Assembly (NCBI GenBank): GCA_937870915.1
Contig: CALMZQ010000221.1
Location: 999-64,998 of the forward strand
Origin: an uncultured Ignavibacteria bacterium
Lineage (GTDB): Bacteria > Bacteroidota > Ignavibacteria > Kapaibacteriales > Kapaibacteriaceae
Direction of reading: 5' to 3'
Length of the DNA: 64,000 nucleotides
In this document: positions 38,827 through 52,154 of the stretch, one piece after another
How positions within the stretch are numbered: the first letter of the stretch is position 1
How the letters are laid out: each line of letters begins with the position of its first letter
Program-made: the position numbers and the translations under genes
Notes under the pieces: generated by a model
What the model was told of the DNA's origin: nothing
Seen by the model: the letters and a program-made list of their open reading frames with translations, nothing else
The model's database searches: none

Positions 38827-41800
38827 TCATTGAGTACTGACCCTTACGTTTTCCTCAACTCCTATCTCGCGTGTATCTGTACCACCGGCATAGGAGAGAT
38901 GTCCATGATATCCTCCGATGACATTCGTTAGCACACGTACGTCTTCTACCATCACTCCTCGCCAGTGAGCGGTTCCATGCAAAGTGCCCTTTACAACAAG
39001 TGATGCATTACGAAGATCAGTACGGAAGAGATCGCGGATCTCCGGACGTACTACACACTGAAGAAAGCCTGTCTCATCTTCGATAGTCACAAAGAGCATA
39101 CCGTGTGCTGTTGCGGGCGCTTGACGTAATATGACGATCCCTGCGGTTGTAACGCGGAGTCCAGGTGTTACGGCCAAACGTTTGATCACTTCAATCGGAC
39201 GTACTTCAAGATCAGTAAGCCCCCTTCGATAGAGCGTCATAGGATGCAACCTCGCTGCTCCATGGGTGATGTAGTCATATGCAAGTCGTTCCTGTGCACG
39301 CAACTCGGGAAGTAGTGGTATGTCCTCTTCATGAAGCAATGGAGAGTGTATCAGTGGTGTGGGATTACCTGATGCTCGTCGTTTGACAACACCCACCATC
39401 CACATAGCTCTACGTGCATCGGCTTCCCAGGGCTCCATAGCACCAGCGAGTGCAAGTGCATCAAGAGCATCACGTGGCACGTCAGGTAGGCGAACTACAA
39501 TGTCCTCGATGCTGGTAAATGGTGCGCGAGAACGCTCCCAGACGATCATTCGTGCTACATGTTCACTTACATGTGAAACACTGGTAAGGGGCTTGCGGAT
39601 TGCCGTTGTTCCGTCGGGCATGGTTTCGAGTGCATAGCGCATACCGGAGTAGATCATGTTGGGAAGTAGAACGTTCACGCCACAACGGCGTGATTCTTCC
39701 TCCAAGGTCATAAGGTTATACATACCCGGACGATGTTGCATGAAGGCCGCCATGTATGCGGCTGCATGATGAGTTTTAAGCCATGCACTCTGGTAGACGA
39801 TCTTGGCAAATGCAGCAGCATGAGATCTACAGAAGCCATACCCTACAAAGTGCGAGACCTTTTCATAGACATTCTCTGCGCTGATACGGTCTACACCACG
39901 CAACATCGCTCCTTGAATGAATCGCTCTCTCATAGCCTCCATGAGGACACGGTCGCGATTCTTAGATACCAGTGCACGAAAGTCATCGGCTTCATCAAGA
40001 GGCATACCGGCAAACTTGTGAGCAATCTCCAGTACCTGTTCTTGAAAGAGGACAATGCCTAGAGTGTCCTTCAGTATGGGTTCTAGGTCCGGGTGGAGGT
40101 AGGTGATAGGTTGTATGCCTTTACGTCGTGCGATGTACGGATGTACCATTCCGCCTTGGAGCGGACCCGGACGGAACAGTGCTACTTCCGTCACAAGGTC
40201 GTCAAAAGATTCCGGTTGATGTTTCGCTAACAGGTGCATTTGACCCTGAGACTCTATTTGAAACACGCCTAATGTGCGACCGCTGCGAATAAGGTCAAAT
40301 GTGGCGGGGTCATCTAAAGGAAGTTCATCAACATCGAGTGTCTCGCCGGTATGCTGCATGAAAAGTTCAATGGTCTCGCTTATGCAGGCTAACATCCTGA
40401 GTCCTAGCACATCGAATTTCACAAGCCCCATTGCCTCAACATCATCTTTGTCGAATTGAACAACGGCAACACCATTGGCCGAGCGTTGTACCGGTGTGAG
40501 ATCCGTAAGTGGACGGGAAGAGAGGATCATGCCTCCGGAATGAAGGCCAAGATGACGTGGATGATCAAGAAGCAGATGAACAGCACGCATGAGGACATCG
40601 AGCAGGGGGATATCTCCGCATACAGCTGCGAGATCTGCACGATACTCCGTCACATCCTTGTTTGTCCACGACGGTACACATTTCGATAGTTTGTTCACAG
40701 TCTCCATTGGCCAACCAAGCGCCTTTGCAGCATCACGTACGGCCATACGAGCACGGTACATGATCAGCGTGGCTGTCATGGCTGTCCTGTTCGTTCCAAA
40801 TCGTTCTTCCATCCACGCAATCACTTCATCCCGTCTGTCGCTATCAAAGTCAACATCGATATCTGGTGTACCCTTTCGCCCCCTATGAAGAAATCGTTCA
40901 AAGAGGAGGTGATGTTTGATGGGGCATACGCCGGTGATACCAAGGAGGTAGGCTACGATTGAGTTGGCTGCAGAGCCACGCCCGGAACATCGGATGCCGC
41001 GACGTTTTGACTCGTCGACTACTTCCTTCACCACAAGAAAGAAGTCCGACAGTTGTAGATCGCCTATCACACGCAGCTCATGTTCAAGCAACGTTCTGGC
41101 CTTCTCTTCACGTCCGGTGTATCGTAGTGGAAATGTTATCTCACACGCATTTCGTAGCACTTCATGAGCAACCTCCCCGGGCTTCAATTGAGCTGAAGGG
41201 GGCGTAATGTGCTCCGGAATTATGTTGAATGAACATTGTTGAATGATATCACGAACATGCTCGAATGCCTCTGGCCAAGGAAGGAGCGAACGCAATTCAT
41301 CTTCGCTCCGTAGACAATGCCTGTCATTGACTGGACGTTGAGGATGGGGCTCATGGATCGTGATGCCATGGCGTATGCACGTCATTAGGTCATGCGTTGC
41401 ATATCTATCGCGGACAGCATACCTAACATCCTGAGCGATCACACATGGAAGCGAATGCACCTTAGCCAGTTCTACGATTTGTGCTGCACGGCGCCTAGCC
41501 CATGGCCTTCCATCGTGTCCAATTCCAACATACGTCAGCTTCTTGGGGAGTTTCTGAAGTACTTCTTCCACCACTACACGTTCAGCCGAAAGCCCGTGCA
41601 GAATGAGAATACACCGATTAAGTATTGATAGCCTGTTATAGATCTCGCAATCATCTTCAGCGCGAAGCACAGTTACAAGCTCACAGATCTCTGCGTATCC
41701 TTTCTGATCCTTAGCGAGTACTGTTACTACTGTGCCGTTACACTCCAGATCCGTTCCAATGATCGGCTGTAAACCGTACTCAATACATGCCTGCTGAAGT

Positions 41801-41943
41801 CGTACCGCTGCAAACACCCCCAATGTGTCGGTTAGAGCCAATGCCACATGGCCAAGTCGTACAGATTCTACTACATACTCTTCCGGAGACGAAGCACCGT
41901 CTAGAAAGGAGAAATGTGAACGGGTGTGGAGGGAAGCAAACAT
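38827..41943 (-). CDS. dnaE2: Error-prone DNA polymerase III alpha subunit DnaE2 (ImuC)
   Basis: PHP start H..SHFSFLDGASSP, GRGSAANS, FERF, catalytic PDIDVDF, PRHLGLHSGG, KFDVLGL, GVFQIES, YGFCRSHAAAFA, RQAP.TA.G.LFVTIEDETG; start set to the ATG at 41943. Confidence 0.93.
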   Translation of the reverse strand: MFASLHTRSHFSFLDGASSPEEYVVESVRLGHVALALTDTLGVFAAVRLQQACIEYGLQPIIGTDLECNGTVVTVLAKDQKGYAEICELVTVLRAEDDCEIYNRLSILNRCILILHGLSAERVVVEEVLQKLPKKLTYVGIGHDGRPWARRRAAQIVELAKVHSLPCVIAQDVRYAVRDRYATHDLMTCIRHGITIHEPHPQRPVNDRHCLRSEDELRSLLPWPEAFEHVRDIIQQCSFNIIPEHITPPSAQLKPGEVAHEVLRNACEITFPLRYTGREEKARTLLEHELRVIGDLQLSDFFLVVKEVVDESKRRGIRCSGRGSAANSIVAYLLGITGVCPIKHHLLFERFLHRGRKGTPDIDVDFDSDRRDEVIAWMEERFGTNRTAMTATLIMYRARMAVRDAAKALGWPMETVNKLSKCVPSWTNKDVTEYRADLAAVCGDIPLLDVLMRAVHLLLDHPRHLGLHSGGMILSSRPLTDLTPVQRSANGVAVVQFDKDDVEAMGLVKFDVLGLRMLACISETIELFMQHTGETLDVDELPLDDPATFDLIRSGRTLGVFQIESQGQMHLLAKHQPESFDDLVTEVALFRPGPLQGGMVHPYIARRKGIQPITYLHPDLEPILKDTLGIVLFQEQVLEIAHKFAGMPLDEADDFRALVSKNRDRVLMEAMRERFIQGAMLRGVDRISAENVYEKVSHFVGYGFCRSHAAAFAKIVYQSAWLKTHHAAAYMAAFMQHRPGMYNLMTLEEESRRCGVNVLLPNMIYSGMRYALETMPDGTTAIRKPLTSVSHVSEHVARMIVWERSRAPFTSIEDIVVRLPDVPRDALDALALAGAMEPWEADARRAMWMVGVVKRRASGNPTPLIHSPLLHEEDIPLLPELRAQERLAYDYITHGAARLHPMTLYRRGLTDLEVRPIEVIKRLAVTPGLRVTTAGIVILRQAPATAHGMLFVTIEDETGFLQCVVRPEIRDLFRTDLRNASLVVKGTLHGTAHWRGVMVEDVRVLTNVIGGYHGHLSYAGGTDTREIGVEENVRVSTQ

Positions 41944-41944
41944 G

Positions 41945-42124
41945 GAACAGCGAACATTAACAGCGAACGCAGAACAGCGAACAGCGAACCTTAGTGAATA
42001 GGGGAAACGTAGAAGAAATATACAAAATGTACATCCTTCATTCTCTACGCAATTCGCTGTTCTGGATTCGCTGTTCGCTGTTAACATTCTCTATTCGCTA
42101 TTCGCTATTCTCTATTCGCTATTC
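41945..42124. repeat. Two inverted arrays of heptamer repeats (GAACAGC versus TTCGCTG/TTCGCTA) flanking a ~60-bp spacer
   Basis: 41945-41989 GAACAGCGAACATTAACAGCGAACGCAGAACAGCGAACAGCGAAC; 42052-42124 ATTCGCTGTTCTGGATTCGCTGTTCGCTGTTAACATTCTCTATTCGCTATTCGCTATTCTCTATTCGCTATTC. Confidence 0.85.
42017..42031. promoter_or_regulatory. Candidate SOS-like operator upstream of dnaE2 (TACA-N3-TGTA)
   Basis: AATATACAAAATGTA, identical to 48334-48348; extends to the near-palindrome ATATACAAAATGTACAT. Confidence 0.6.
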
Positions 42125-43026
42125 TTCATCCACGTCCGTTCCAACACAGAAGTAGCGATGTAGTCAACTTTCAGCCCATTATTTGTTACCATTCTGTTCG
42201 TTGTGCTGAAAGCTCTCATGTATCCGCGGTTTACATATCGCTCCATAGTTGCATGAGAGATTGATATAGTGCCGTACGCAGGGATACGTTTCATCGTTAC
42301 GGCCATATAGGCTATCTGATCGTTGCCGGTTCCTGAAAGTGAATCCACACGAACTGTTCGAAAAAGCGTATCAAGCTTCTCGTTCATAACAACGGTCTTC
42401 TCTGGGCCGAATGTATGGCCGATATTCTGTATGGCTGAGCGAAGAGATAACGTATCAGTATAGGACTTGCCAATCATGGTCATAGTCTCGCCCCTTGCAA
42501 ATGGAGCTAACAATGCAAATTCTGTAGGAAAGGTCATTACAAGTGACGTTTGTGCCTCTGAGTCCATTGTTCTGGAGATCACACTTCCTAGGCTATTACC
42601 ATCGTCCGTGGATGACATCATGTCATGACTAGCCATCATTATGCGTCCATAAGGATCTAACGTGGCTTCATACTGAGGGGAAGCCCATGCCAATCGAACG
42701 CCCGTGATGCTCATTTCACCCTTCTTAGAGAAGAGGAGGGTGTCAGATTTCAGCAGGTCTCGCATGGTTCTCATTTTTACAGCTACACGAACGTTGCCCA
42801 CTTCGTCGCGGTCTATGATCTCCAACTGGTATACAGCAGGCACACATACACCTTTGTCATTCATCACATGCTGGTCAATTCGCAGGTGATAGGAGAGTAT
42901 CCTACCAATAGCAAGGTCGCTCGTACCTTGATCTTGCACCATGCCCGGTCCCGATTGTTCATTCTGTCCACTTGCAACCTGGTAGATCAAGAGAGCAAGG
43001 ACAGAGACACACAGGAAGTTCTTCAT
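42112..43026 (-). CDS. Secreted hypothetical protein, tandem paralog 1 of 4
   Basis: Signal peptide (ASG-Q), GAGGTG RBS, shared motif GR.L.Y.LR.DQ.V...GVC.PA.Y....DRD..GN.RV. Confidence 0.8.
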   Translation of the reverse strand: MKNFLCVSVLALLIYQVASGQNEQSGPGMVQDQGTSDLAIGRILSYHLRIDQHVMNDKGVCVPAVYQLEIIDRDEVGNVRVAVKMRTMRDLLKSDTLLFSKKGEMSITGVRLAWASPQYEATLDPYGRIMMASHDMMSSTDDGNSLGSVISRTMDSEAQTSLVMTFPTEFALLAPFARGETMTMIGKSYTDTLSLRSAIQNIGHTFGPEKTVVMNEKLDTLFRTVRVDSLSGTGNDQIAYMAVTMKRIPAYGTISISHATMERYVNRGYMRAFSTTNRMVTNNGLKVDYIATSVLERTWMKNSE

Positions 43027-43149
43027 CTCGCCACCTCTTTGTAATTCGGACAAGACAGTCCGAATATATGACGACGCCTTATAGATAGCAAGGAAAAGTT
43101 TTCATACGTGAAAAAACGTATACTAGAGGTAGAATTAGTGAGTAGGGGG

Positions 43150-44085
43150 CTACTTTTTCACTGTACTCGAATCCAATATCGAGGTAGCGATGTATTCAGG
43201 AATCAAGCCGGGTATGCCTTCCTTACGGCTAGTAGTTTCAAAGGTCTTCATATACCCCTTTTTTACATACCGTTGCATAATGGACGTGGCAATGGAATGT
43301 ACACCATAGACCGGGTGGCGCTCCATCCGAACCGTCATATGAGCAACCTCATCGTCACCACTACCAGAAAGTGAGTCTATGGTGACTGCTCGAATGATTG
43401 TATCCTGGTTCAAGCGTGGTTGTTTCTCTGATTCTGACCCAGTTGTATGACCGATCTTTTGGATCGTCGATGTGATCAAAAGGGTGTCTACATATGCCGT
43501 ACCAATAATGAACGAATTTGATTCGCGTAGATATGGGGCCAAAAGCGCATACTCCGTAGGTATGGTAGAGAGTACTTGCGTCATTGCATCGGAGTCTGTT
43601 ATGCGCGGCAGAACTGTCCCCATGGTGATCGTTTCTGGAGTTGTAGACTCGAACTGTGCGTTAGTAAACATAACCCTGCCATACGCGTCGAGGGTGGCTT
43701 CGTATCTAGGAATTGTAAATGCAAGGCGTACACCAATGATCTTCAATTCTCTAGACTTTGTCATAAAGAGCGTATCGGATGATATCAATTCACCAGCCGA
43801 TCTCATTTGAACAGATACGCGTGAATTGCCAGCCTCATCTCGGTCAAGAATTGTAATCGTATACGTGGCAGGTATACATACCCCTCTACCGTTCACAACG
43901 TGCTGATCAACTCTGAGCCGGTAGGTCAGAACCCTGCCAGGCACCAATTCCGTGTATGCTTTGTCATTGAGTATCCCTGGCCCCACACGAACATCCGGAC
44001 CATTGTCTCCATTCTGACCTCGACTCACATTGGCAGAAAGAATGAAGACGCACAAAACAAATGGTAAAGAGACGGTCTTGATCAT
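43150..44085 (-). CDS. Secreted hypothetical protein, tandem paralog 2 of 4
   Basis: Signal peptide (SRG-Q), same shared motif, C-terminal PEYIATSILD. Confidence 0.8.
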   Translation of the reverse strand: MIKTVSLPFVLCVFILSANVSRGQNGDNGPDVRVGPGILNDKAYTELVPGRVLTYRLRVDQHVVNGRGVCIPATYTITILDRDEAGNSRVSVQMRSAGELISSDTLFMTKSRELKIIGVRLAFTIPRYEATLDAYGRVMFTNAQFESTTPETITMGTVLPRITDSDAMTQVLSTIPTEYALLAPYLRESNSFIIGTAYVDTLLITSTIQKIGHTTGSESEKQPRLNQDTIIRAVTIDSLSGSGDDEVAHMTVRMERHPVYGVHSIATSIMQRYVKKGYMKTFETTSRKEGIPGLIPEYIATSILDSSTVKK

Positions 44086-44207
44086 GGCATCACCTCAGAG
44101 TAGATGGTTTGACGACGTCAGATCAGCTATCACGAACTTCTACACAAGAACAGTAGTGTGGTAATGTTCGGGTGTACGAGTGCCGTAAGTAATATAGCGT
44201 ATGAAAC

Positions 44208-45140
44208 TCACCTATCCATCGTACTCGTATCGAGAATGGAGGTTGCGATGTATTCAGGAATGGGGCTGGTAGATCCCACCTTCCTACTGGTGGTAACAAA
44301 GGACTTCATATAGCCCTTTTTTATGTAGCGTTCCATAACCGAGATCGCAACCGAAGGCATTCCGTAAACAGGGTAACGCTCCATACGAACGGTCATATGT
44401 GCGAGCTCATCGTTACCACTTCCAGAGACTGAATCGATCGTCACCGTTCGAATGATAGTATCCTGAGCCTCTTTCGGCTGGGGCCTTGTCTCGGTTCCTA
44501 TAGTTCTGCCAATCTTTTGGATTGCAGAGGTAAATAGTATTGTGTCTTTATACGGTCTTCCTACGAGAATGGAGGTTGCCCCTTGTAGATACGGTGCCAT
44601 GAGGGCGTATTCTGTTGGGATAGTGGAAAGGACGTTTGCCATTGCATCCGAGTCCGTTATCCGAGACTCAACGTTACCCATCGTACTTGATTCTTGGGAC
44701 ATTGCGTCTAATTGTTCATTTGTATATAGAACCCTGCCATTTACGTCCAAGGTTGCTTCATACTTGGGAATTGCAAAAGCAAGGCGCACCCCAACGATCT
44801 TCATCACCGTTGACTTTGAGAGAAAGATCGTGTCAGACGCAATGAGCTCGCCTGCGGATCGCATTTCAACTGAAACACGTGAGTTGCCAGCAGCATCTCT
44901 ATCGAGTATTGCTATCGAATATATAGCTGGTATACATACGCCTCTTCCATGTACAACATGTTGGTCAACCCTGAGTTTATACGTTAGGACTCTACCAGGA
45001 GTAAGCTCTGTGTATGCCTTGTCGTTGAGAACTTCAGGCCCTACCTGAATAATCGGTGTATCGCTGGTGTCTTGCCCCTTACTCACGCCAATTGAGATAA
45101 AGATCAAACAGAAATGGACCGTCAAGGCAAGTAGTTTCAT
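44208..45140 (-). CDS. Secreted hypothetical protein, tandem paralog 3 of 4
   Basis: Signal peptide (SKG-Q), same shared motif, most similar to paralog 2. Confidence 0.8.
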   Translation of the reverse strand: MKLLALTVHFCLIFISIGVSKGQDTSDTPIIQVGPEVLNDKAYTELTPGRVLTYKLRVDQHVVHGRGVCIPAIYSIAILDRDAAGNSRVSVEMRSAGELIASDTIFLSKSTVMKIVGVRLAFAIPKYEATLDVNGRVLYTNEQLDAMSQESSTMGNVESRITDSDAMANVLSTIPTEYALMAPYLQGATSILVGRPYKDTILFTSAIQKIGRTIGTETRPQPKEAQDTIIRTVTIDSVSGSGNDELAHMTVRMERYPVYGMPSVAISVMERYIKKGYMKSFVTTSRKVGSTSPIPEYIATSILDTSTMDR

Positions 45141-45277
45141 TACGTTTACTCGAGTCAGATGCCGACAGTAAGCAAAACTACTTACTTCCGTTCTACGCGA
45201 GAAGGTACTTTATAGTTTCCTCCAATTCTATTTCTGGTGAAATACTTTAAAAAGAACTCTCTTTGAGCCGTTTAAGG

Positions 45278-46207
45278 CTATTTGGTGTCTTCTAAGGAAT
45301 TGTTAATCCAGGAACGTTCAAGTACGGTGGTTGCCACGTAGTCCAGCCGTAAACCTTTATTCGTGACCAAGTTGTTTGTTGTTTTGAATGACTTCATATA
45401 GCCGCGGCTTACGTAGCGTTCCATGGTTGCTTGGACGATAGATTCTGCTCCGTGTGAGGAAGATCGATTCATAACAACCTTCATATACGCGATCTGGTCA
45501 GGCCCTGCACCTGAGAGCGAGTCGACACGAACTTTCCTGATCACTATATCGTGTATCTCCTTTACGCTTGAAGTGCTATCGGGGCCATATGTATGACCGA
45601 TTGCTTGCATGCTCGATCGAATGGTGAGAGTATCAACATATTCTTTACCAACCTCTGTCATAAATGCCCCGTGTTGATAGGGGGCTAACAATGCTAACTC
45701 AGTAGGGAATGTTACTGCAACTGAAGAAACGGCCTCATAGTCAGTTGTGCGGGAAAGTACTGACCCCATAGTTCTTGCGGCTTCAGTGTGTCCGGGTAGT
45801 TCGTCACGTGCACGTAACAGACGGCCGAATTTGTCGAGTGTAGCTTCGTATTTCGGTGATATCCACGCCATTCGAAAACCCACGATCTTCAGTTCTCCAC
45901 TTTGCGAAGCAAAGAGAGTATCAGTAGTTAAGAGCTCTCTCATTGTTCGTACTTGTACCCCAACACGAACGTTACCTGCGGCATCGCGATCTAATACCTC
46001 TAACTGATAGACTGCCGGGATACATACACCTTTATCTTTAACCACACTTTGGTCTACCCGCAAATGATACGTAAGAACTCTGCCGGGTACGAGTTCTGAT
46101 TCAGCGTTCATCTTGCTGCTGTGCGATTCCATTCGCTCAGTCTGTGCGCTCGCCTCTACTGTCAAGAACAAAGAGACGCAATGAAGAAGTACGAGAGCTT
46201 TCATCAT
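45278..46207 (-). CDS. Secreted hypothetical protein, tandem paralog 4 of 4
   Basis: Signal peptide (ASA-Q), same shared motif, C-terminal DYVATTVLERSW like paralog 1. Confidence 0.8.
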   Translation of the reverse strand: MMKALVLLHCVSLFLTVEASAQTERMESHSSKMNAESELVPGRVLTYHLRVDQSVVKDKGVCIPAVYQLEVLDRDAAGNVRVGVQVRTMRELLTTDTLFASQSGELKIVGFRMAWISPKYEATLDKFGRLLRARDELPGHTEAARTMGSVLSRTTDYEAVSSVAVTFPTELALLAPYQHGAFMTEVGKEYVDTLTIRSSMQAIGHTYGPDSTSSVKEIHDIVIRKVRVDSLSGAGPDQIAYMKVVMNRSSSHGAESIVQATMERYVSRGYMKSFKTTNNLVTNKGLRLDYVATTVLERSWINNSLEDTK

Positions 46208-46515: not shown

Positions 46516-47468
46516 TCATTCCCTCTGCGTTCTTGGGAATAGCCTGTAATCCGTGCATATGACTCGGGAACTATGGACCATGGATCTAGGATCTCGATAC
46601 GCTTCATCACGGAGGAATAGCGTGGAATCATAGCTAAGGAGACATCTAGAGCTGTTTTCCGCTCGATGAACAGCTGTGTTTGAATAACACTTGGTTGGGT
46701 AAGTGAAGCCAGCCGTAGCCGCAGACCCCACCAGAGTCGTACTGGGCCTTGTAGATCGCGCAGTAAGGCGCGTGCATGGACCAAGATGGTATCATATGTT
46801 GTGGCACCCTGACGTAGTACTCTACTGCGCTGCGCGCACACGTCATCGGCTCTATCCAGTACTGCAAGCTCAATACGCCAGCAGAGTTTTGGTACAAGTT
46901 CTGATATCACACGAGCACAACATTCTCGCAAGGCTGAGTCTAGGACACCGGGCTCACATTGCACATCATCGAATCGCTCTGAAGAGACGATGGCAGGGGG
47001 CGGAACATAGAGTGGAAGGGGAGGAAATTCTTGTACAAGGAAGGTGTGGAGTTTACTGCCGGCCGTTCCAAACTGAACACGGAGATGACGTTCCTCCAGC
47101 TGCTGCAGGTCTCCTATGGTGCGGATACCAAAGAGCCGTAAGCGTTCTGCGTCGCGTTCATCTAAAGAGAGCTCAGGTATTCGCAGGAGCACGGAGCTAG
47201 GTACATCCTTCGCATTTGCGTAGGCGTCCAAACGTCCTGCCGTTCCGTTGAGTGCACAGAGAAATGCACTTATTCTATCGGGTGCCAACGCAGATAATGC
47301 CTTGGTTCTACGCACGAGCTCACGAAGTCCATTCAGATCATCAGTGCCGGCAAATAGCCTACCATGCCCGGACACTACAAGAAGTGGGGTACAAGCATGT
47401 ACCCGTTCAACAACGGCATCCCATCGGGCGGAGGAGAGAGCCCCTTCCATAACAACGCAGAGAATCAT
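46512..47468 (-). CDS. Y-family polymerase-like accessory protein (ImuB/ImuY-like, probably catalytically inactive)
   Basis: ERLRLFGIRTIGDL HhH/thumb motif, L..QFG..G, little-finger-like region, Q.QLF clamp-binding-like motif; lacks the N-terminal acidic catalytic motif. Confidence 0.75.
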   Translation of the reverse strand: MILCVVMEGALSSARWDAVVERVHACTPLLVVSGHGRLFAGTDDLNGLRELVRRTKALSALAPDRISAFLCALNGTAGRLDAYANAKDVPSSVLLRIPELSLDERDAERLRLFGIRTIGDLQQLEERHLRVQFGTAGSKLHTFLVQEFPPLPLYVPPPAIVSSERFDDVQCEPGVLDSALRECCARVISELVPKLCWRIELAVLDRADDVCAQRSRVLRQGATTYDTILVHARALLRDLQGPVRLWWGLRLRLASLTQPSVIQTQLFIERKTALDVSLAMIPRYSSVMKRIEILDPWSIVPESYARITGYSQERRGNE

Positions 47469-47527
47469 CTGCGATTCTACGAAATGTCAAATGAATTGAC
47501 AAAGCAGATGTGGGCTGGGGGATAAGT

Positions 47528-48298
47528 TTAGAGTTTCTTGATGCAACTGCGAACCACACCAACTATCGTAAAGTCCATGTCGGCTGTGATGGCAATGTCC
47601 TTATACCGTCTGTTTTCAGCCCGCAGAACTGGACGCCCTTCGGCCTTGATATATCGTTTAACGGTGAGTTCGCCGTAGACCTTTGCAATGACGATCTGAC
47701 CAGAACGTGGCTGGATGGCACAATCAACGATAAGAGTGTCTCCATCACTGATTCCTGCGTCAGTCATTGAATCTCCCACCACCCGAATAAAATAGGTGCT
47801 TTCGGGATGTTCAAGAAGCATATCGGCCAGATCAATCTCACGCTCGATCGTGTCATCGGAAGCAGTAGGGAGGCCGGCACTAACTCCCAATGACAACATC
47901 GGAATACGTGGCCCGCGAGCCCCCTTCACTGAACGAGCAGGTGCTACAACAAGGGGCGATTGTGACTTGAGTTCGGCAATTACAGAACGAATGGCTTGCA
48001 CTTGCTCTTCGAGACGGTCTAAAGCGGTTTTTGCCTCGCTGGGAATCGAGTGATGATCAGGGCCTGATGTTCCAAGTGTTGGAGAGCCGGTTCCGGTCAA
48101 GAGCCAACCGGAAGAAATCCCGTAGCGTTTTTCGAGGATGGCCAATACATCCTGGGGTACAGATGTGCGACCAGATTCCCACGAATACACGGTAGGTACC
48201 TTTACCTGCATATGCTTTGCATAGTCAGCCACAGACATCTGAAGGACAGATTCGCGGATCTGACGATGACGGGTGCCGAGCTGGATCTTGGTTTGCAT
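47528..48298 (-). CDS. XRE-HTH plus peptidase S24 (LexA/UmuD-like) self-cleaving repressor
   Basis: HTH (YA..MQV...TVYSWESGRTSVP..WLLTG), VSAG cleavage site, VVGDSM Ser, TVKR Lys; start set to the ATG at 48298. Confidence 0.88.
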   Translation of the reverse strand: MQTKIQLGTRHRQIRESVLQMSVADYAKHMQVKVPTVYSWESGRTSVPQDVLAILEKRYGISSGWLLTGTGSPTLGTSGPDHHSIPSEAKTALDRLEEQVQAIRSVIAELKSQSPLVVAPARSVKGARGPRIPMLSLGVSAGLPTASDDTIEREIDLADMLLEHPESTYFIRVVGDSMTDAGISDGDTLIVDCAIQPRSGQIVIAKVYGELTVKRYIKAEGRPVLRAENRRYKDIAITADMDFTIVGVVRSCIKKL

Positions 48299-48333
48299 AG
48301 GAATACCGTATTCAATTGTGGAAACATGTGGAC

Positions 48334-48348
48334 AATATACAAAATGTA
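48334..48348. promoter_or_regulatory. Candidate auto-operator upstream of the HTH-S24 repressor
   Basis: AATATACAAAATGTA, 35 nt upstream of the ATG, identical to the box upstream of dnaE2. Confidence 0.6.
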
Positions 48349-48379
48349 AAGGTATTTGCATTTATTATGGAGTAGGGGG

Positions 48380-49900
48380 CTATGTGGTGGTGGACTTCTC
48401 GACTGTTTTCAATAGGGACTCGAACATCACTTCGAAGGGGATGAGCTCATTTGTTTCAGAGGGCATGGGATCATGCGAGGAGGCAACAAGCTCCTCGTAA
48501 ATGTCCTTTGTGTTCTTGCGGATCTCGGATGGAATAAACGAGTGTTTGGGAAAACTTTGAATGAGGCGTAAGAATATCCGGACCCTATTGAAGTGCTTTT
48601 CTTTGAGATAGCGCGAGGAATAGACTCGCAGATAGTCGATCCGTTTTTCAGCCGTATCGTAGTCACCATTGATCATGAGGTAGAATACGTGAGACACTAT
48701 GATCAATACGTTATAGACCTTCTTTGACTTTGATTCTTCCGGTAGGGAATTCAGATACGTTGAAAGGCGAAACGTCTTTGCGCGACTCTGTTGCGGTGCA
48801 TACAGACCGAGCTGTTCAGCGAGCAAAAGGTAGGCGCCGTAGATGATCCAGCGCTCCCTTGTATTCTCGGAGAGCATGTTGTACTTGCGATGGGTTGTTG
48901 CCCTCGTGTAGAGGAGTTCAGCCTTTTCATAATCCTGGATATTGATAGCAGCTACAAAGGCAAGGTCAGATGCAAAGTACCAGTTGTTACCTGCTACAGT
49001 GAATGAATCAATACACTTGTCTGAAAGGGTGAAGGCCTCACTATAGCGTCGTAGGTAGAGTGCCGCCGTCATTTTCTGAAGCATGAACTCACCGTGACGT
49101 GCTCGTTGAGACAGATGAGGAACCGAATTCAGGTATTCAATGGCACTGTCACATTCATTGATAACCCCGGAAAAATCCTCAACAAAATCGAAGTAGTTCA
49201 CCGCGGCGCGGAAACTGCTCAACCGCAGGCCATGCGTATTGTGTTCCTTACGCATCGTCTCAACCTTTACCATGGCGTCTTTATGTAGGTCGATCAAATA
49301 GGACCGTTTGCGACTCGTTACCGTCATCTCCATTTTTAAATGGTCGAGCAAAAAGTCTGCATCATATTCACATTTCAATGCGCTCATATGTCGTACCGCT
49401 TCTCGATGATGATGCAGAAACGTGGTGCGCTTGTTCCAAACGGCAGCAGATTCTCGTAACATCACTGCAAGCGAGACGCAGATATCGGTGAACTGATACT
49501 TTTGAGCAATGGTCAGAGTCTTCAACGCTATCGCATAACCAGCACGACGAGATGCAAATCGCATCAAGGTCTGAGCTGCGATCTGGTTGCGCATACATTT
49601 GTAATAGTAGCTCAGGTATTCCGAGTGCTCTGGCTGTTTTACCTGTAAAAAGAGCACGGAGTGCATCAATCGCTCGTACGTACGCGACTTTAGCGTTCGG
49701 TAACGCTGGTCGCTAGATCCCGTTCCATAAAGATCAAGTGCGGCTTCATCATCGTTGGCATATTGATCACTGGCAATACCGATTAGATACCGCCCTGCCA
49801 GTGATGAGGCTGCCTCATCACCCTCGACGAGCTCAGGAAAGACCTTGGCTTTGTCGGATTTCGTTGTAACAATCCGCAATATTTCTTTAAGAATTTCCAT
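48380..49900 (-). CDS. Large alpha-helical hypothetical protein (possible N-terminal HTH-like region plus TPR-like repeats)
   Basis: 506-aa ORF, no signal peptide or TM; helical-repeat patterns (LYLRRYSEAF, INIQDYEKAE, MINGDYDTAE); DDEAALDLYG....RYRTLKSR segment; fold call is an inference. Confidence 0.65.
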   Translation of the reverse strand: MEILKEILRIVTTKSDKAKVFPELVEGDEAASSLAGRYLIGIASDQYANDDEAALDLYGTGSSDQRYRTLKSRTYERLMHSVLFLQVKQPEHSEYLSYYYKCMRNQIAAQTLMRFASRRAGYAIALKTLTIAQKYQFTDICVSLAVMLRESAAVWNKRTTFLHHHREAVRHMSALKCEYDADFLLDHLKMEMTVTSRKRSYLIDLHKDAMVKVETMRKEHNTHGLRLSSFRAAVNYFDFVEDFSGVINECDSAIEYLNSVPHLSQRARHGEFMLQKMTAALYLRRYSEAFTLSDKCIDSFTVAGNNWYFASDLAFVAAINIQDYEKAELLYTRATTHRKYNMLSENTRERWIIYGAYLLLAEQLGLYAPQQSRAKTFRLSTYLNSLPEESKSKKVYNVLIIVSHVFYLMINGDYDTAEKRIDYLRVYSSRYLKEKHFNRVRIFLRLIQSFPKHSFIPSEIRKNTKDIYEELVASSHDPMPSETNELIPFEVMFESLLKTVEKSTTT

Positions 49901-50290
49901 GGCAAAAACACCTAAAGTGCCTTATAGTAGGGACTTGCATTGCAACTCCAATATACAGTATTGCCAGTAATGCCCTGTAACAATTTCAATTTATTTGTAA
50001 CAGAGTATCAATTCTATTCATACCATTTTCGCTCTACAGGCAACGGACCGGGGTTATACCCGTGCCGTGGTGCCTCGCGTCGCACAATGCCCGGCAAATG
50101 CCGGTGTTGTGATCGTACATATGCATTGATCTGTCCAATAACATGGACGGTTCATCTGTATCTGGTCAAACATAACCTATCCGTTGTGGTGGGGTAGGTT
50201 TGGGTTGGTTGATGCAGAGATATATGGAGTCACAAAAATGAAGATCAACTACAAACATCATTTGTTCAAACCAATACAAGGGTTTCCGCC

Positions 50291-50476
50291 ATGGAACTAC
50301 TCATCGCAATCATGTGCTTCTTCGGACTCGTTAGCTACGAGGATGCCGGTATTACGCAACCTGAGGCCAATCTTCTGTTGCAGAACAATCAGTCGACGGT
50401 CCAGTATTACTACGATAATCCGGACTCACTCGCCGTATTGCCACAACGCGTCAACATTGATAGAGCAGAAGATTAA
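50291..50476 (+). CDS. Small peptide L1 (61 aa), hydrophobic N-terminus, ends IDRAED
   Basis: MELLIAIMCFFGLVSYEDAGITQPEANLLLQNNQSTVQYYYDNPDSLAVLPQRVNIDRAED; paralog at 50745. Confidence 0.85.
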   Translation: MELLIAIMCFFGLVSYEDAGITQPEANLLLQNNQSTVQYYYDNPDSLAVLPQRVNIDRAED

Positions 50477-50528
50477 TGTCTGTCTGAACTAACAAATCAC
50501 TTCAAAAACAATTTCAAGCGAGAACATC

Positions 50529-50582
50529 ATGCGTACAACACGCCAACACCCATACTCGATCGATCGCGGCGAAGAAAACTAA
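50529..50582 (+). CDS. Micropeptide S1 (17 aa) MRTTRQHPYSIDRGEEN
   Basis: ATG...TAA; differs from S2 only at silent positions; GAGAACATC-ATG start context. Confidence 0.8.
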   Translation: MRTTRQHPYSIDRGEEN

Positions 50583-50611
50583 TTCAAACAACTCCTTAAC
50601 ACGAGAACATC

Positions 50612-50665
50612 ATGCGCACAACACGTCAACACCCATACTCGATCGATCGCGGCGAAGAGAACTGA
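50612..50665 (+). CDS. Micropeptide S2 (17 aa) MRTTRQHPYSIDRGEEN
   Basis: ATG...TGA; peptide identical to S1 with 4 nucleotide differences, all silent. Confidence 0.8.
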   Translation: MRTTRQHPYSIDRGEEN

Positions 50666-50744
50666 GCTGCAAAGAGTCCTCGAGTCTTTGTCGAAGTCAA
50701 GAACAACCACAAATCAAACAACACAAAAATCGAAAGTCAACACC

Positions 50745-50933
50745 ATGGAACTCCTCATCGCAATCATGTGCTTTTTCGGAATCGTCAGCTATGAAGATGC
50801 TGGTATCAGCCAGACCGACGCGAGATACCTCCTTCAAAGCAATCAGACAACAGTTCAGTACTACTACCAGAACCCAGATGAACTAACAGGCCTCGTACCA
50901 CAACGCGCACAGATCGACCGTGCTGAAGACTGA
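50745..50933 (+). CDS. Small peptide L2 (62 aa), paralog of L1, ends IDRAED
   Basis: MELLIAIMCFFGIVSYEDAGISQTDARYLLQSNQTTVQYYYQNPDELTGLVPQRAQIDRAED; 46 identities to L1 by manual alignment. Confidence 0.85.
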   Translation: MELLIAIMCFFGIVSYEDAGISQTDARYLLQSNQTTVQYYYQNPDELTGLVPQRAQIDRAED

Positions 50934-50936
50934 AGT

Positions 50937-50973
50937 TAGAGTGCTAGTGTGCTAGAATGCTAGAATGCTAGAG
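50937..50973 (+). repeat. Octamer tandem repeat (TAGAATGC consensus, ~4.5 copies)
   Basis: TAGAGTGC TAGTGTGC TAGAATGC TAGAATGC TAGAG. Confidence 0.8.
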
Positions 50974-51034
50974 AAGGCGAAGCGGTCACATGAAACTCAA
51001 CACGAACAACAACAAGAACACAAAAGGAAACATC

Positions 51035-51088
51035 ATGAAAACCAACCGTCAACACCCGTACTCGATCGATCGCGGCGAAGAGAACTAA
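51035..51088 (+). CDS. Micropeptide S3 (17 aa) MKTNRQHPYSIDRGEEN
   Basis: AAAGGAAACATC-ATG; last 13 aa identical to S1/S2; an upstream in-frame ATG at 50990 would give a 32-aa form. Confidence 0.8.
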   Translation: MKTNRQHPYSIDRGEEN

Positions 51089-51139
51089 GAAGTCCGTGGA
51101 CTTGAACCAATATATTTTTTGAACTCAAAGGAGAACGTC

Positions 51140-51496
51140 ATGTTGCAAGCAATGCCCGTTCAGAACTGCATGCACTTCCTGATGCCGATCAGCTTGGATG
51201 ATTGGAAGTCGTATGACGTCCCCGGTGTAGTGGGAATCCTCCGCAAAGGCGAATCAGGGCAATATGAGCTAGTCGATGCCTTTGATTGTGACCAGATCCC
51301 AGGAGCCAACGAGCTCACGCTTCATGAGAAGTATGGTCAATGGTTGAATGCAGCAGGCAGCCAAGAGCTCATGCGTTTCGATGTCTTCCTCATGCCTCAG
51401 GCAAACAAGACACGCAGAAATGATGTGATTGCACTTATTGAGCGCAGCTGTGGCATTATTCTGCCTTCTAGATCAGCCTACGTGAATGCCGCATAG
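51140..51496 (+). CDS. Hypothetical protein (118 aa), possible degenerate GIY-YIG-fold
   Basis: AAGGAG RBS; PGVVGIL...YELVD...HEKYGQWL..AGS...FLMP....RR...LI pattern resembles small GIY-YIG-like proteins but the Tyr/Gly motifs are substituted. Confidence 0.55.
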   Translation: MLQAMPVQNCMHFLMPISLDDWKSYDVPGVVGILRKGESGQYELVDAFDCDQIPGANELTLHEKYGQWLNAAGSQELMRFDVFLMPQANKTRRNDVIALIERSCGIILPSRSAYVNAA

Positions 51497-51503
51497 CGTA
51501 AAA

Positions 51504-52154
51504 CTATTTACGTGTGATCTTGACAAGTTTTGAAGTAGTAGCACCGAATGGTGGCCCGTCCGTAGTAGTTCCAGCCCACAGCTGAGATTCATCTGTGATG
51601 ATGCCAAGAGACGGGCTTACAAACGATAGAGATTTCGTAACAACCACACCAACGCCATCGGTTAACGTTGGTACTGACAATGCCTGGAAAACGGCGCAGC
51701 GAATAGAACCCGCAGGCGTCGTTAAGGTGGTGTCCGCATGTACTGTTGTTACAACCTTCTCATAGATCTGCAGAGTTGAACCTGAAGGATTCCTTAGTGT
51801 ATCCAAAACGTGGATCACTGTATCTCCTACTGTTGTAGGGAATCGGGCGATCTTCACTGCCGTCTCTGTTCCTCGATAGGTTTCAAGATAGCCGCCCCTC
51901 ATCCTATACGTGTAGTCTTCGCGTAAGAGTACTTGAGCTCCCGGAGCTCCTGAAACTCCAATAACCAATACCGTTGTAACGGTGGTACTGTCTGGTTGCG
52001 TAGTTGACGTAGATTCGAAATCCAATTTATCTCCTGCCTTAAGGTCAAAGGTGGAGAGTGTGAATGTAGGTTCTTGAGGAACTGGATCTGTGGTAGATGC
52101 GCACGATGAAATCAAGAGCGCAGTGCAGATCAAGGAAATGAATGTCTTTATCAT
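51504..52154 (-). CDS. Hypothetical lipoprotein
   Basis: LISS-C lipobox; Thr-rich beta region with TTPAGSI.C and PSLGII motifs. Confidence 0.7.
   Translation of the reverse strand: MIKTFISLICTALLISSCASTTDPVPQEPTFTLSTFDLKAGDKLDFESTSTTQPDSTTVTTVLVIGVSGAPGAQVLLREDYTYRMRGGYLETYRGTETAVKIARFPTTVGDTVIHVLDTLRNPSGSTLQIYEKVVTTVHADTTLTTPAGSIRCAVFQALSVPTLTDGVGVVVTKSLSFVSPSLGIITDESQLWAGTTTDGPPFGATTSKLVKITRK

Follow-up and report, generated by a model that had tools for sequence, protein, structure and literature searches.

The stretch of DNA analysed here, hereafter the window, comprises 64,000 nucleotides (nt) from an uncultured Ignavibacteria bacterium and corresponds to contig C221 of its genome (3.3 Mb, 97% complete). 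It contains a small module in which the gene for a 506-residue protein, p506, lies head-to-head with an array of peptide genes; in our judgement there is an even chance that this module is a peptide-sensing regulator analogous to the RRNPP family, of which it is not a demonstrated member. The p506 gene (48380..49900, minus strand) encodes a predicted cytoplasmic protein, a candidate peptide receptor or regulator, and its separation by 390 bp from the first peptide gene, which starts at 50291, confirms the arrangement described in the initial annotation of this DNA.

The peptide genes all lie on the plus strand. The first, p61a (50291..50476), is a precursor-like open reading frame (ORF) of 61 residues with a hydrophobic N-terminal leader and the C-terminal sequence IDRAED, and a second precursor-like ORF of 62 residues, p62b (50745..50933), ends in the same motif and shares 75% identity with p61a (repeat D2). 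Three copies of a 17-residue ORF, each with the C terminus PYSIDRGEEN, lie between and after these genes (copy 1, 50529..50582; copy 2, 50612..50665; copy 3, 51035..51088), with copies 1 and 2 differing only by synonymous changes and in the stop codon. The last gene in the operon, p118 (51140..51496), encodes a 118-residue protein with a GIY-YIG-like fold; the array had been described correctly in the initial annotation, apart from p118, which was not recognised as part of the unit. As read from the sequence, a purine-rich Shine-Dalgarno-like stretch precedes every small ORF (AAGGG about 10 nt 5' of the ATG in the case of p61a), and AAGGAG precedes p118. In an alignment of 21 p61-like homologues (A4), M1, A6, D57, R58 and E60 are invariant, and in 34 short-peptide units, judged by eye from the listed units rather than tabulated, the IDRGE codons change at third positions only. 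The genes of the module are under purifying selection, and the restriction of core-codon variation to third positions, along with the Shine-Dalgarno-like sites before the ORFs, suggests that the peptides are translated.

The fold of p506

p506 matches no family in Pfam, NCBIfam, PADLOC or PHROGs; its 67 close relatives are all named 'hypothetical' and come from Kapabacteria- or Ignavibacteria-labelled assemblies, with none on the viral contigs searched. The AlphaFold2 model, built from a 50-sequence alignment (A1), is all-helical, with 26 helices, a mean pLDDT of 89.5 and a pTM of 0.80, and the N terminus is hydrophilic as read from the translation, in agreement with the soluble, helical-repeat-like protein that had been anticipated. 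Foldseek retrieved just generic TPR proteins with this model (E ~3e-3). An exhaustive structural search ranked RapI highest (17.6, with accompanying values of 5.7 and 298), and also returned pLS20 Rap (17.2), LGN (16.5), MalT domain III (16.2), NprR with NprX (16.1) and AimR (15.1), the last spanning model residues 1-498. LGN/Pins, MalT domain III and kinesin light chain differ from p506 in being eukaryotic or parts of larger STAND proteins, and in having no adjacent peptide genes. We read the model as a closed TPR superhelix of the type that holds extended peptides, most like that of Rap, a resemblance that does not by itself prove homology; the predicted fold thus includes the TPR-type superhelix of RRNPP(A) receptors.

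The Rap structural matches start at about residue 130-190 of p506, which, compared with Rap, has an extra conserved N-terminal region of ~130-165 residues outside these matches. This region includes a conserved helical domain (about residues 1-90; alignment A3), which is followed by the TPR-like superhelix and which contains a basic helix with invariant R66, R68, K71, S72 and R73. The effector domains of RRNPP(A) proteins are either XRE-type helix-turn-helix (HTH) domains, as in NprR, PlcR, PrgX, Rgg and AimR, or a 3-helix bundle, as in Rap. Family scans, hhalign and a PDB profile search detected no HTH or other DNA-binding family in the N-terminal domain of p506, and the HTH of AimR is without a demonstrated counterpart there. 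Of the HTH-plus-TPR receptor originally proposed, the superhelix stands, with Rap, NprR and AimR among the top-ranking structures, and an HTH was not detected. Assignment of the N terminus as a sigma-70 region-4-like HTH was dropped, the hhalign probability against the extracytoplasmic function sigma factor of the window being 0.2%.

Sequence-profile searches of the PDB with alignments A1, A2 and A3 gave nothing meaningful, the 50-sequence profile yielding a single spurious match (E 0.67) among all PDB chains, and no sequence homology of p506 to known RRNPP(A) members was detectable in Pfam, NCBIfam or PDB profile searches. In this respect p506 differs from the Rap-Phr and NprR-NprX systems, of which pLS20 Rap, RapI and phage phi3T Rap are the closest. 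Since the sequence-homology test failed and the effector domain is undefined, we do not file the module as an RRNPP member. The RRNPP-like circuit put forward in the initial annotation is thus supported in part, by the fold and by the conserved pairing described below, and not by sequence homology.

Pairing of p506 homologues with peptide genes

Twenty loci from species-representative genomes were compared, 17 of which include 880 nt or more of sequence upstream of p506. In 13 of these 17, p61-like ORFs (with a hydrophobic leader and C-terminal IDRxED) occur together with short IDRGE peptides. Among 20 metagenome loci, two were dropped because the match starts at the locus edge, and peptide ORFs are present in 17 of the remaining 18, part of these loci probably representing the same populations as the genome loci. 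The recurrence of the pairing in both sets argues that the arrangement is not due to chance and bears out the expected association of homologues with small peptide ORFs. In some loci (L008, L013, L021, L024 and L046) the short peptide is present as 3-4 tandem units within one ORF.

These tandem core repeats, the strong conservation of the core, the leader-plus-core layout and the presence of several precursor genes are features that would also suit a pathway for ribosomally synthesized and post-translationally modified peptides (RiPPs), in which the small ORFs would be precursors that p506 and/or p118 recognise or modify, giving a natural product. We consider such a pathway very unlikely: neither p506 and p118 nor the genes around them matched a modifying-enzyme, protease or exporter family in Pfam, NCBIfam or PADLOC, and as far as the Pfam scans of the surrounding genes reach, the initial annotation was right that no RiPP enzyme or exporter is visible nearby; no superfamily-wide conserved residue set looks catalytic; the TPR solenoid is unlike known RiPP enzyme folds; and p118 is missing from many modules (L016, L046).

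Genes of the p506 family are frequently present as tandem pairs (L019:4001-7040, L020, L028, L031, L038), in which the visible peptide ORF faces just one member. Several contigs with Kapabacteria-type modules (L005, L008, L010, L013, L020 and L024) carry titles of Didemnitutus, Hyphomicrobiales or Bradyrhizobiaceae metagenome-assembled genomes. These titles probably stem from mistakes in binning or labelling, not from transfer; L005 shares 98% identity with the window.

Of 401 genomes of the phylum, 26 have a profile match with A1, among them all 12 from the family to which the window belongs, and remote homologues of ~500 residues with 22-24% identity are found in other families of Bacteroidota. 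At least 613 proteins, all unnamed and labelled Saprospiraceae or Bacteroidota, fall into one such remote branch. Although tblastn found neither p61 nor p118 at the remote loci, many of the homologues lie opposite a small, divergently oriented ORF whose leader is of the same type but whose C terminus carries another motif; these include repeated motifs (IDPAGNK x7, VTDPNGKN x4 and GGWVGDI repeats) and tails of IVDRGTGN, IDPEEN and IITDDG type. By a strict leader criterion, small ORFs are present at 8 of 21 remote gene starts compared with ~1.5 expected, although 2 of the 8 positives look like chance and 3 repeat-bearing ORFs are missed. In two loci the peptide gene is followed by genes for an SBP_bac_5 protein and an ABC permease, that is, an oligopeptide-type ABC transporter: in L034 (5859-8041) the remote homologue faces a 120-residue ORF of GGTGGWVGDI-type repeats, and in L035 (582-3628) a 50-residue ORF with a Gly/Trp-rich tail. 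An SBP_bac_5 gene is also found near L002, and like the L034 and L035 neighbours it is a lead only.

The genome of the window itself encodes further cassettes. Contig C164 has a paralogous p506/p118 pair with a different 17-residue ORF, and two remote cassettes are located on C1 (L043:2293-4741) and C36 (L044:210-2721), whose TPR-like proteins match A1 with hhalign E values of 3.7e-4 and 1.8e-3, respectively. Each of these two proteins faces a p61-like ORF with another tail, after which the cargo gene encodes a protein (214 or 241 residues) that is rich in Cys, apparently secreted and without a Pfam family; the cargo is thus variable. On C115 an orphan p61-like ORF adjoins a transposase-like gene. 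Directly after the C164 paralogous p506 gene there is a tandem DNA repeat (L002:2981-3193), which reads as a 70-residue ORF of IRYSLF heptads. The next gene, on the opposite strand, is of AlbA_2/Schlafen type; the same neighbour is present in L012 and L016.

A small propeptide gene next to that of the receptor, as is typical of RRNPP(A) systems, is hence found in the close loci, beside remote homologues and with the paralogues of the same genome. The likeness extends to the paralogous cassettes with different peptides and to the multiplied signal units, and, as in Rap-Phr systems, one genome can hold several cassettes that each have a separate peptide and cargo gene. Several pheromone units per propeptide and several propeptide genes are among the features described for RRNPPA systems (PMC9765709; PMC11343458). 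The module differs from RRNPP(A) systems in several respects: its host is a diderm Bacteroidota rather than a member of the Bacillota, the p61 leader is not a Sec signal peptide, the 17-residue ORFs are without any leader, and the partner gene has a GIY-YIG-like fold. Compared with the AimR-AimP-AimX (arbitrium) system of Bacillus phages, p506 is not found on viral contigs or in PHROGs, and its gene is divergent from the peptide genes, whereas the arbitrium genes form one co-directional unit. Precursors of the Rgg/ComR type (ComS, SHP) have ~17-25 residues and no classical signal peptide, and their active part is C-terminal; the 17-residue ORFs resemble them in being short and leaderless, but are strongly charged (R, D, E, N), whereas the ComS and SHP peptides are hydrophobic.

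Control region and proposed mechanism

The 390 bp divergent control region between p506 and p61a (49901..50290) contains a tandem direct repeat of TGTAAC (49976..50001, plus strand), with a start-to-start distance of 20 nt, at 76-101 nt from the p506 ATG, which is a candidate operator/promoter element. The repeat is present in all 13 intergenic regions compared, which are otherwise unalignable, and its first site likewise occurs in L006, L007, L012, L017 and L022 and in 18 of 18 metagenome loci. About 25-35 nt beyond it lies a second conserved element, of ATTTTCG type (50024..50039, plus strand), which was seen in L008, L013, L014, L015, L021 and L023 as well as in the window. The genome has 10 copies of the strict TGTAAC repeat, of which those on C221 and C164 alone are intergenic and linked to a module, the remaining 8 being inside ORFs or simple repeats. 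In the upstream regions of the Saprospiraceae-type remote branch (L025-L040), a recurrent GTCACA(A/T)TTT was seen by eye upstream of the p506-like gene, where it replaces the TGTAACA element of the Kapabacteria branch.

The possibility that the TGTAAC repeat is a LexA box was rejected as far as tested: the region upstream of recA is without the repeat, the two intergenic copies are module-linked, and the Bacteroidetes LexA motifs CTAA-N5-TTAG, GGA-N5-TCC and TTAC-N5-GTAA are absent from 49901-50290, 48330-48420 and 47440-47560, these being motifs published in PMC8565304, the supplements of which hold further variants. A scan for sigma-70 promoters and terminators gave no useful information (3 promoter-like sites compared with 5.2 expected), with Bacteroidota-type promoters lying outside its scope, and the control region has no match to an Rfam family at E<=1. 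Cis-acting leader or arrest peptides, in which the C-terminal motif at the stop would regulate the downstream p118 at the translational or transcriptional level, could account for short ORFs directly upstream of p118 and for an invariant motif directly before the stop codon in most copies. We regard this as highly improbable, given that the peptides persist without p118 (L016, L046), that the units can also be arranged in tandem inside an ORF, that paralogous cassettes combine other tails with other downstream genes, and that neither an Rfam element nor a terminator pattern was found at the locus. A conserved, module-specific cis-element points to a dedicated control step at the DNA level.

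The peptide-sensing regulator that we favour would operate as follows. p506 belongs to an unannotated, Bacteroidota-wide family of ~500-residue cytoplasmic TPR-superhelix proteins, which would act together with small encoded peptides from a divergently transcribed operon. The TPR groove may bind these peptides by their conserved, acidic C-terminal portion, i.e. IDRxED of the 61-residue products and PYxIDRGEEN of the 17-residue products or repeat units; a complex prediction of p506 (A1) with p61 (A4) gave ipSAE values of 0.14 and 0.20, which are below the 0.32 mark and count neither way. Occupancy of the groove would switch a regulatory output, either through binding of p506 to DNA at the tandem TGTAAC element of the shared promoter region or, alternatively, through protein-protein action like that of Rap. 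The output would control the peptide operon including its cargo gene (the GIY-YIG-like p118 in this case), and also the transcript of p506 itself, which in the window probably runs into the LexA-like and imuB genes. Peptide binding, DNA binding and the direction of regulation are steps that we infer, as is any export and re-import of the peptides.

Several observations weigh against this proposal, in addition to the failure to detect an HTH in p506. The p61 leader starts with an acidic residue and its hydrophobic part extends over just ~12 residues, and the 17-residue peptides are without a leader, which makes export doubtful; an exported peptide would additionally need to pass the outer membrane. 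The peptide motif is near-invariant though the receptors share only 42-55% identity, and its conservation among p506 orthologues contrasts with the fast divergence of Rap-Phr pherotypes. There are also p506 genes without a nearby peptide gene: of the 17 genome loci, two (L007, L022) have p118 only and another two (L006 and L012, both from one complete genome) have neither peptides nor p118, and the metagenome locus L054 has p118 only. About half of the remote homologues are without a convincing peptide ORF, and both loci with adjacent oligopeptide transporter genes (L034, L035) are from one genus.

Published accounts present RRNPP signalling as characteristic of Bacillota and their mobile elements (PMC10075063, PMC9765709, PMC11343458), and one large survey covered Firmicutes genomes only (PMC10075063). 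Our literature searches on RRNPP or RRNPPA in Bacteroidota/Bacteroidetes and on peptides in Kapabacteria/Ignavibacteria found no such system described. If the proposal is correct, it would bring peptide communication, or at least peptide-controlled regulation, to a large diderm phylum, would provide a function for hundreds of 'hypothetical' ~500-residue proteins (the 67 close relatives and the Saprospiraceae-type branch), and would hint that peptides feed into SOS mutagenesis. The module is small and sequence-defined, and is directly testable with synthetic peptides.

Neighbouring genes and p118

A LexA-like repressor gene with HTH_3 and Peptidase_S24 domains (47528..48361, minus strand) follows p506 on the same strand after 18 nt and is probably co-transcribed with it. 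It is followed by an imuB-like gene, a DUF6504 gene, four ~310-residue paralogues and DnaE2 (38830-42087). The combination of an XRE-type HTH with an S24 peptidase, and the adjacent error-prone polymerase genes, correspond to the layout of the non-canonical LexA type described for Bacteroidetes (PMC8565304). The four tandem paralogues (42112-46207, minus strand), which have hydrophobic N termini and no Pfam family, separate the imuB-like and DUF6504 genes from DnaE2 inside what is normally a compact mutasome cassette.

Adjacency of p506 with the LexA-like/imuB genes is observed in 8 of the 20 genome loci, as well as in G157 and in the metagenome loci L052, L054 and L062, and is retained in L021, where the module is inverted; it may reflect inherited synteny or functional coupling. 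The latter is central to a scheme without cell-cell signalling, in which p506 would be an intracellular adaptor that binds the peptide tails and acts in a Rap-like manner on the LexA-like repressor, with p61 as a small membrane-tethered protein, the 17-residue products as cytosolic competitors and the module tied to the SOS mutasome. Such a partner-switch is consistent with the recurrent adjacency, including that of the inverted module, with the missing classical signal peptide, the leaderless 17-residue ORFs and the undetected HTH, and with the pLS20 Rap anti-repressor described in PMC7430634, taken as the best structural match. We nevertheless think it unlikely: the paralogous copies and the majority of the loci are away from lexA, the conserved cis-element favours a DNA-level step, and in L034 and L035 oligopeptide-type transporter genes follow the peptide gene.

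The same adjacency would have a further meaning if the module represented the first RRNPP-type peptide communication family of diderms, with a Kapabacteria peptide signal, of density or kin, gating the SOS mutasome imuB-dnaE2. Bacteroidota-wide TPR receptors would then read short acidic peptides from multiplied genes or repeats, and the primary Kapabacteria cassette would be built into the LexA-like operon. RapI-PhrI, which works alongside the SOS signal on ICEBs1, offers an analogy for a peptide-gated mutasome. We rate this extended version of the peptide-sensing proposal as distinctly unlikely.

With respect to the partner gene, p118 has the alpha/beta fold of GIY-YIG domains. It differs from the GIY-YIG nuclease domains of UvrC (N-terminal domain), I-TevI and T4 EndoII in having no PF01541 match at E<=0.1; a PF01541 scan of its own genome identified 4 other genes and not p118, and hhalign of p118 with the GIY-YIG domains of that genome gave a probability of <1%. 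p118 is therefore not accepted as a bona fide GIY-YIG nuclease: the fold fits, but sequence and profile support is absent. GIY-YIG nucleases use a Tyr/Tyr/Arg/Glu/Asn catalytic set, and UvrC-type proteins carry a Tyr in the first motif. In p118 this motif reads PGVV, which makes nuclease activity doubtful.

The p118 family is tiny: a search of 1.84 billion proteins yielded 14 representatives at E<=1e-3. It is present in 6 of 401 genomes of the phylum, and each of its 9 genes there is no more than 2.2 kb away from a p506 gene. It is absent from the modules of L016 and G157/L046, which keep their peptides, and because modules with peptides can be without it, we regard p118 as an accessory or cargo gene. 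Convergent with p118 in the window is a 216-residue ORF (51504-52154, minus strand) with a lipoprotein-like N terminus and no family, which is kept only in the near-identical L005 (87%).

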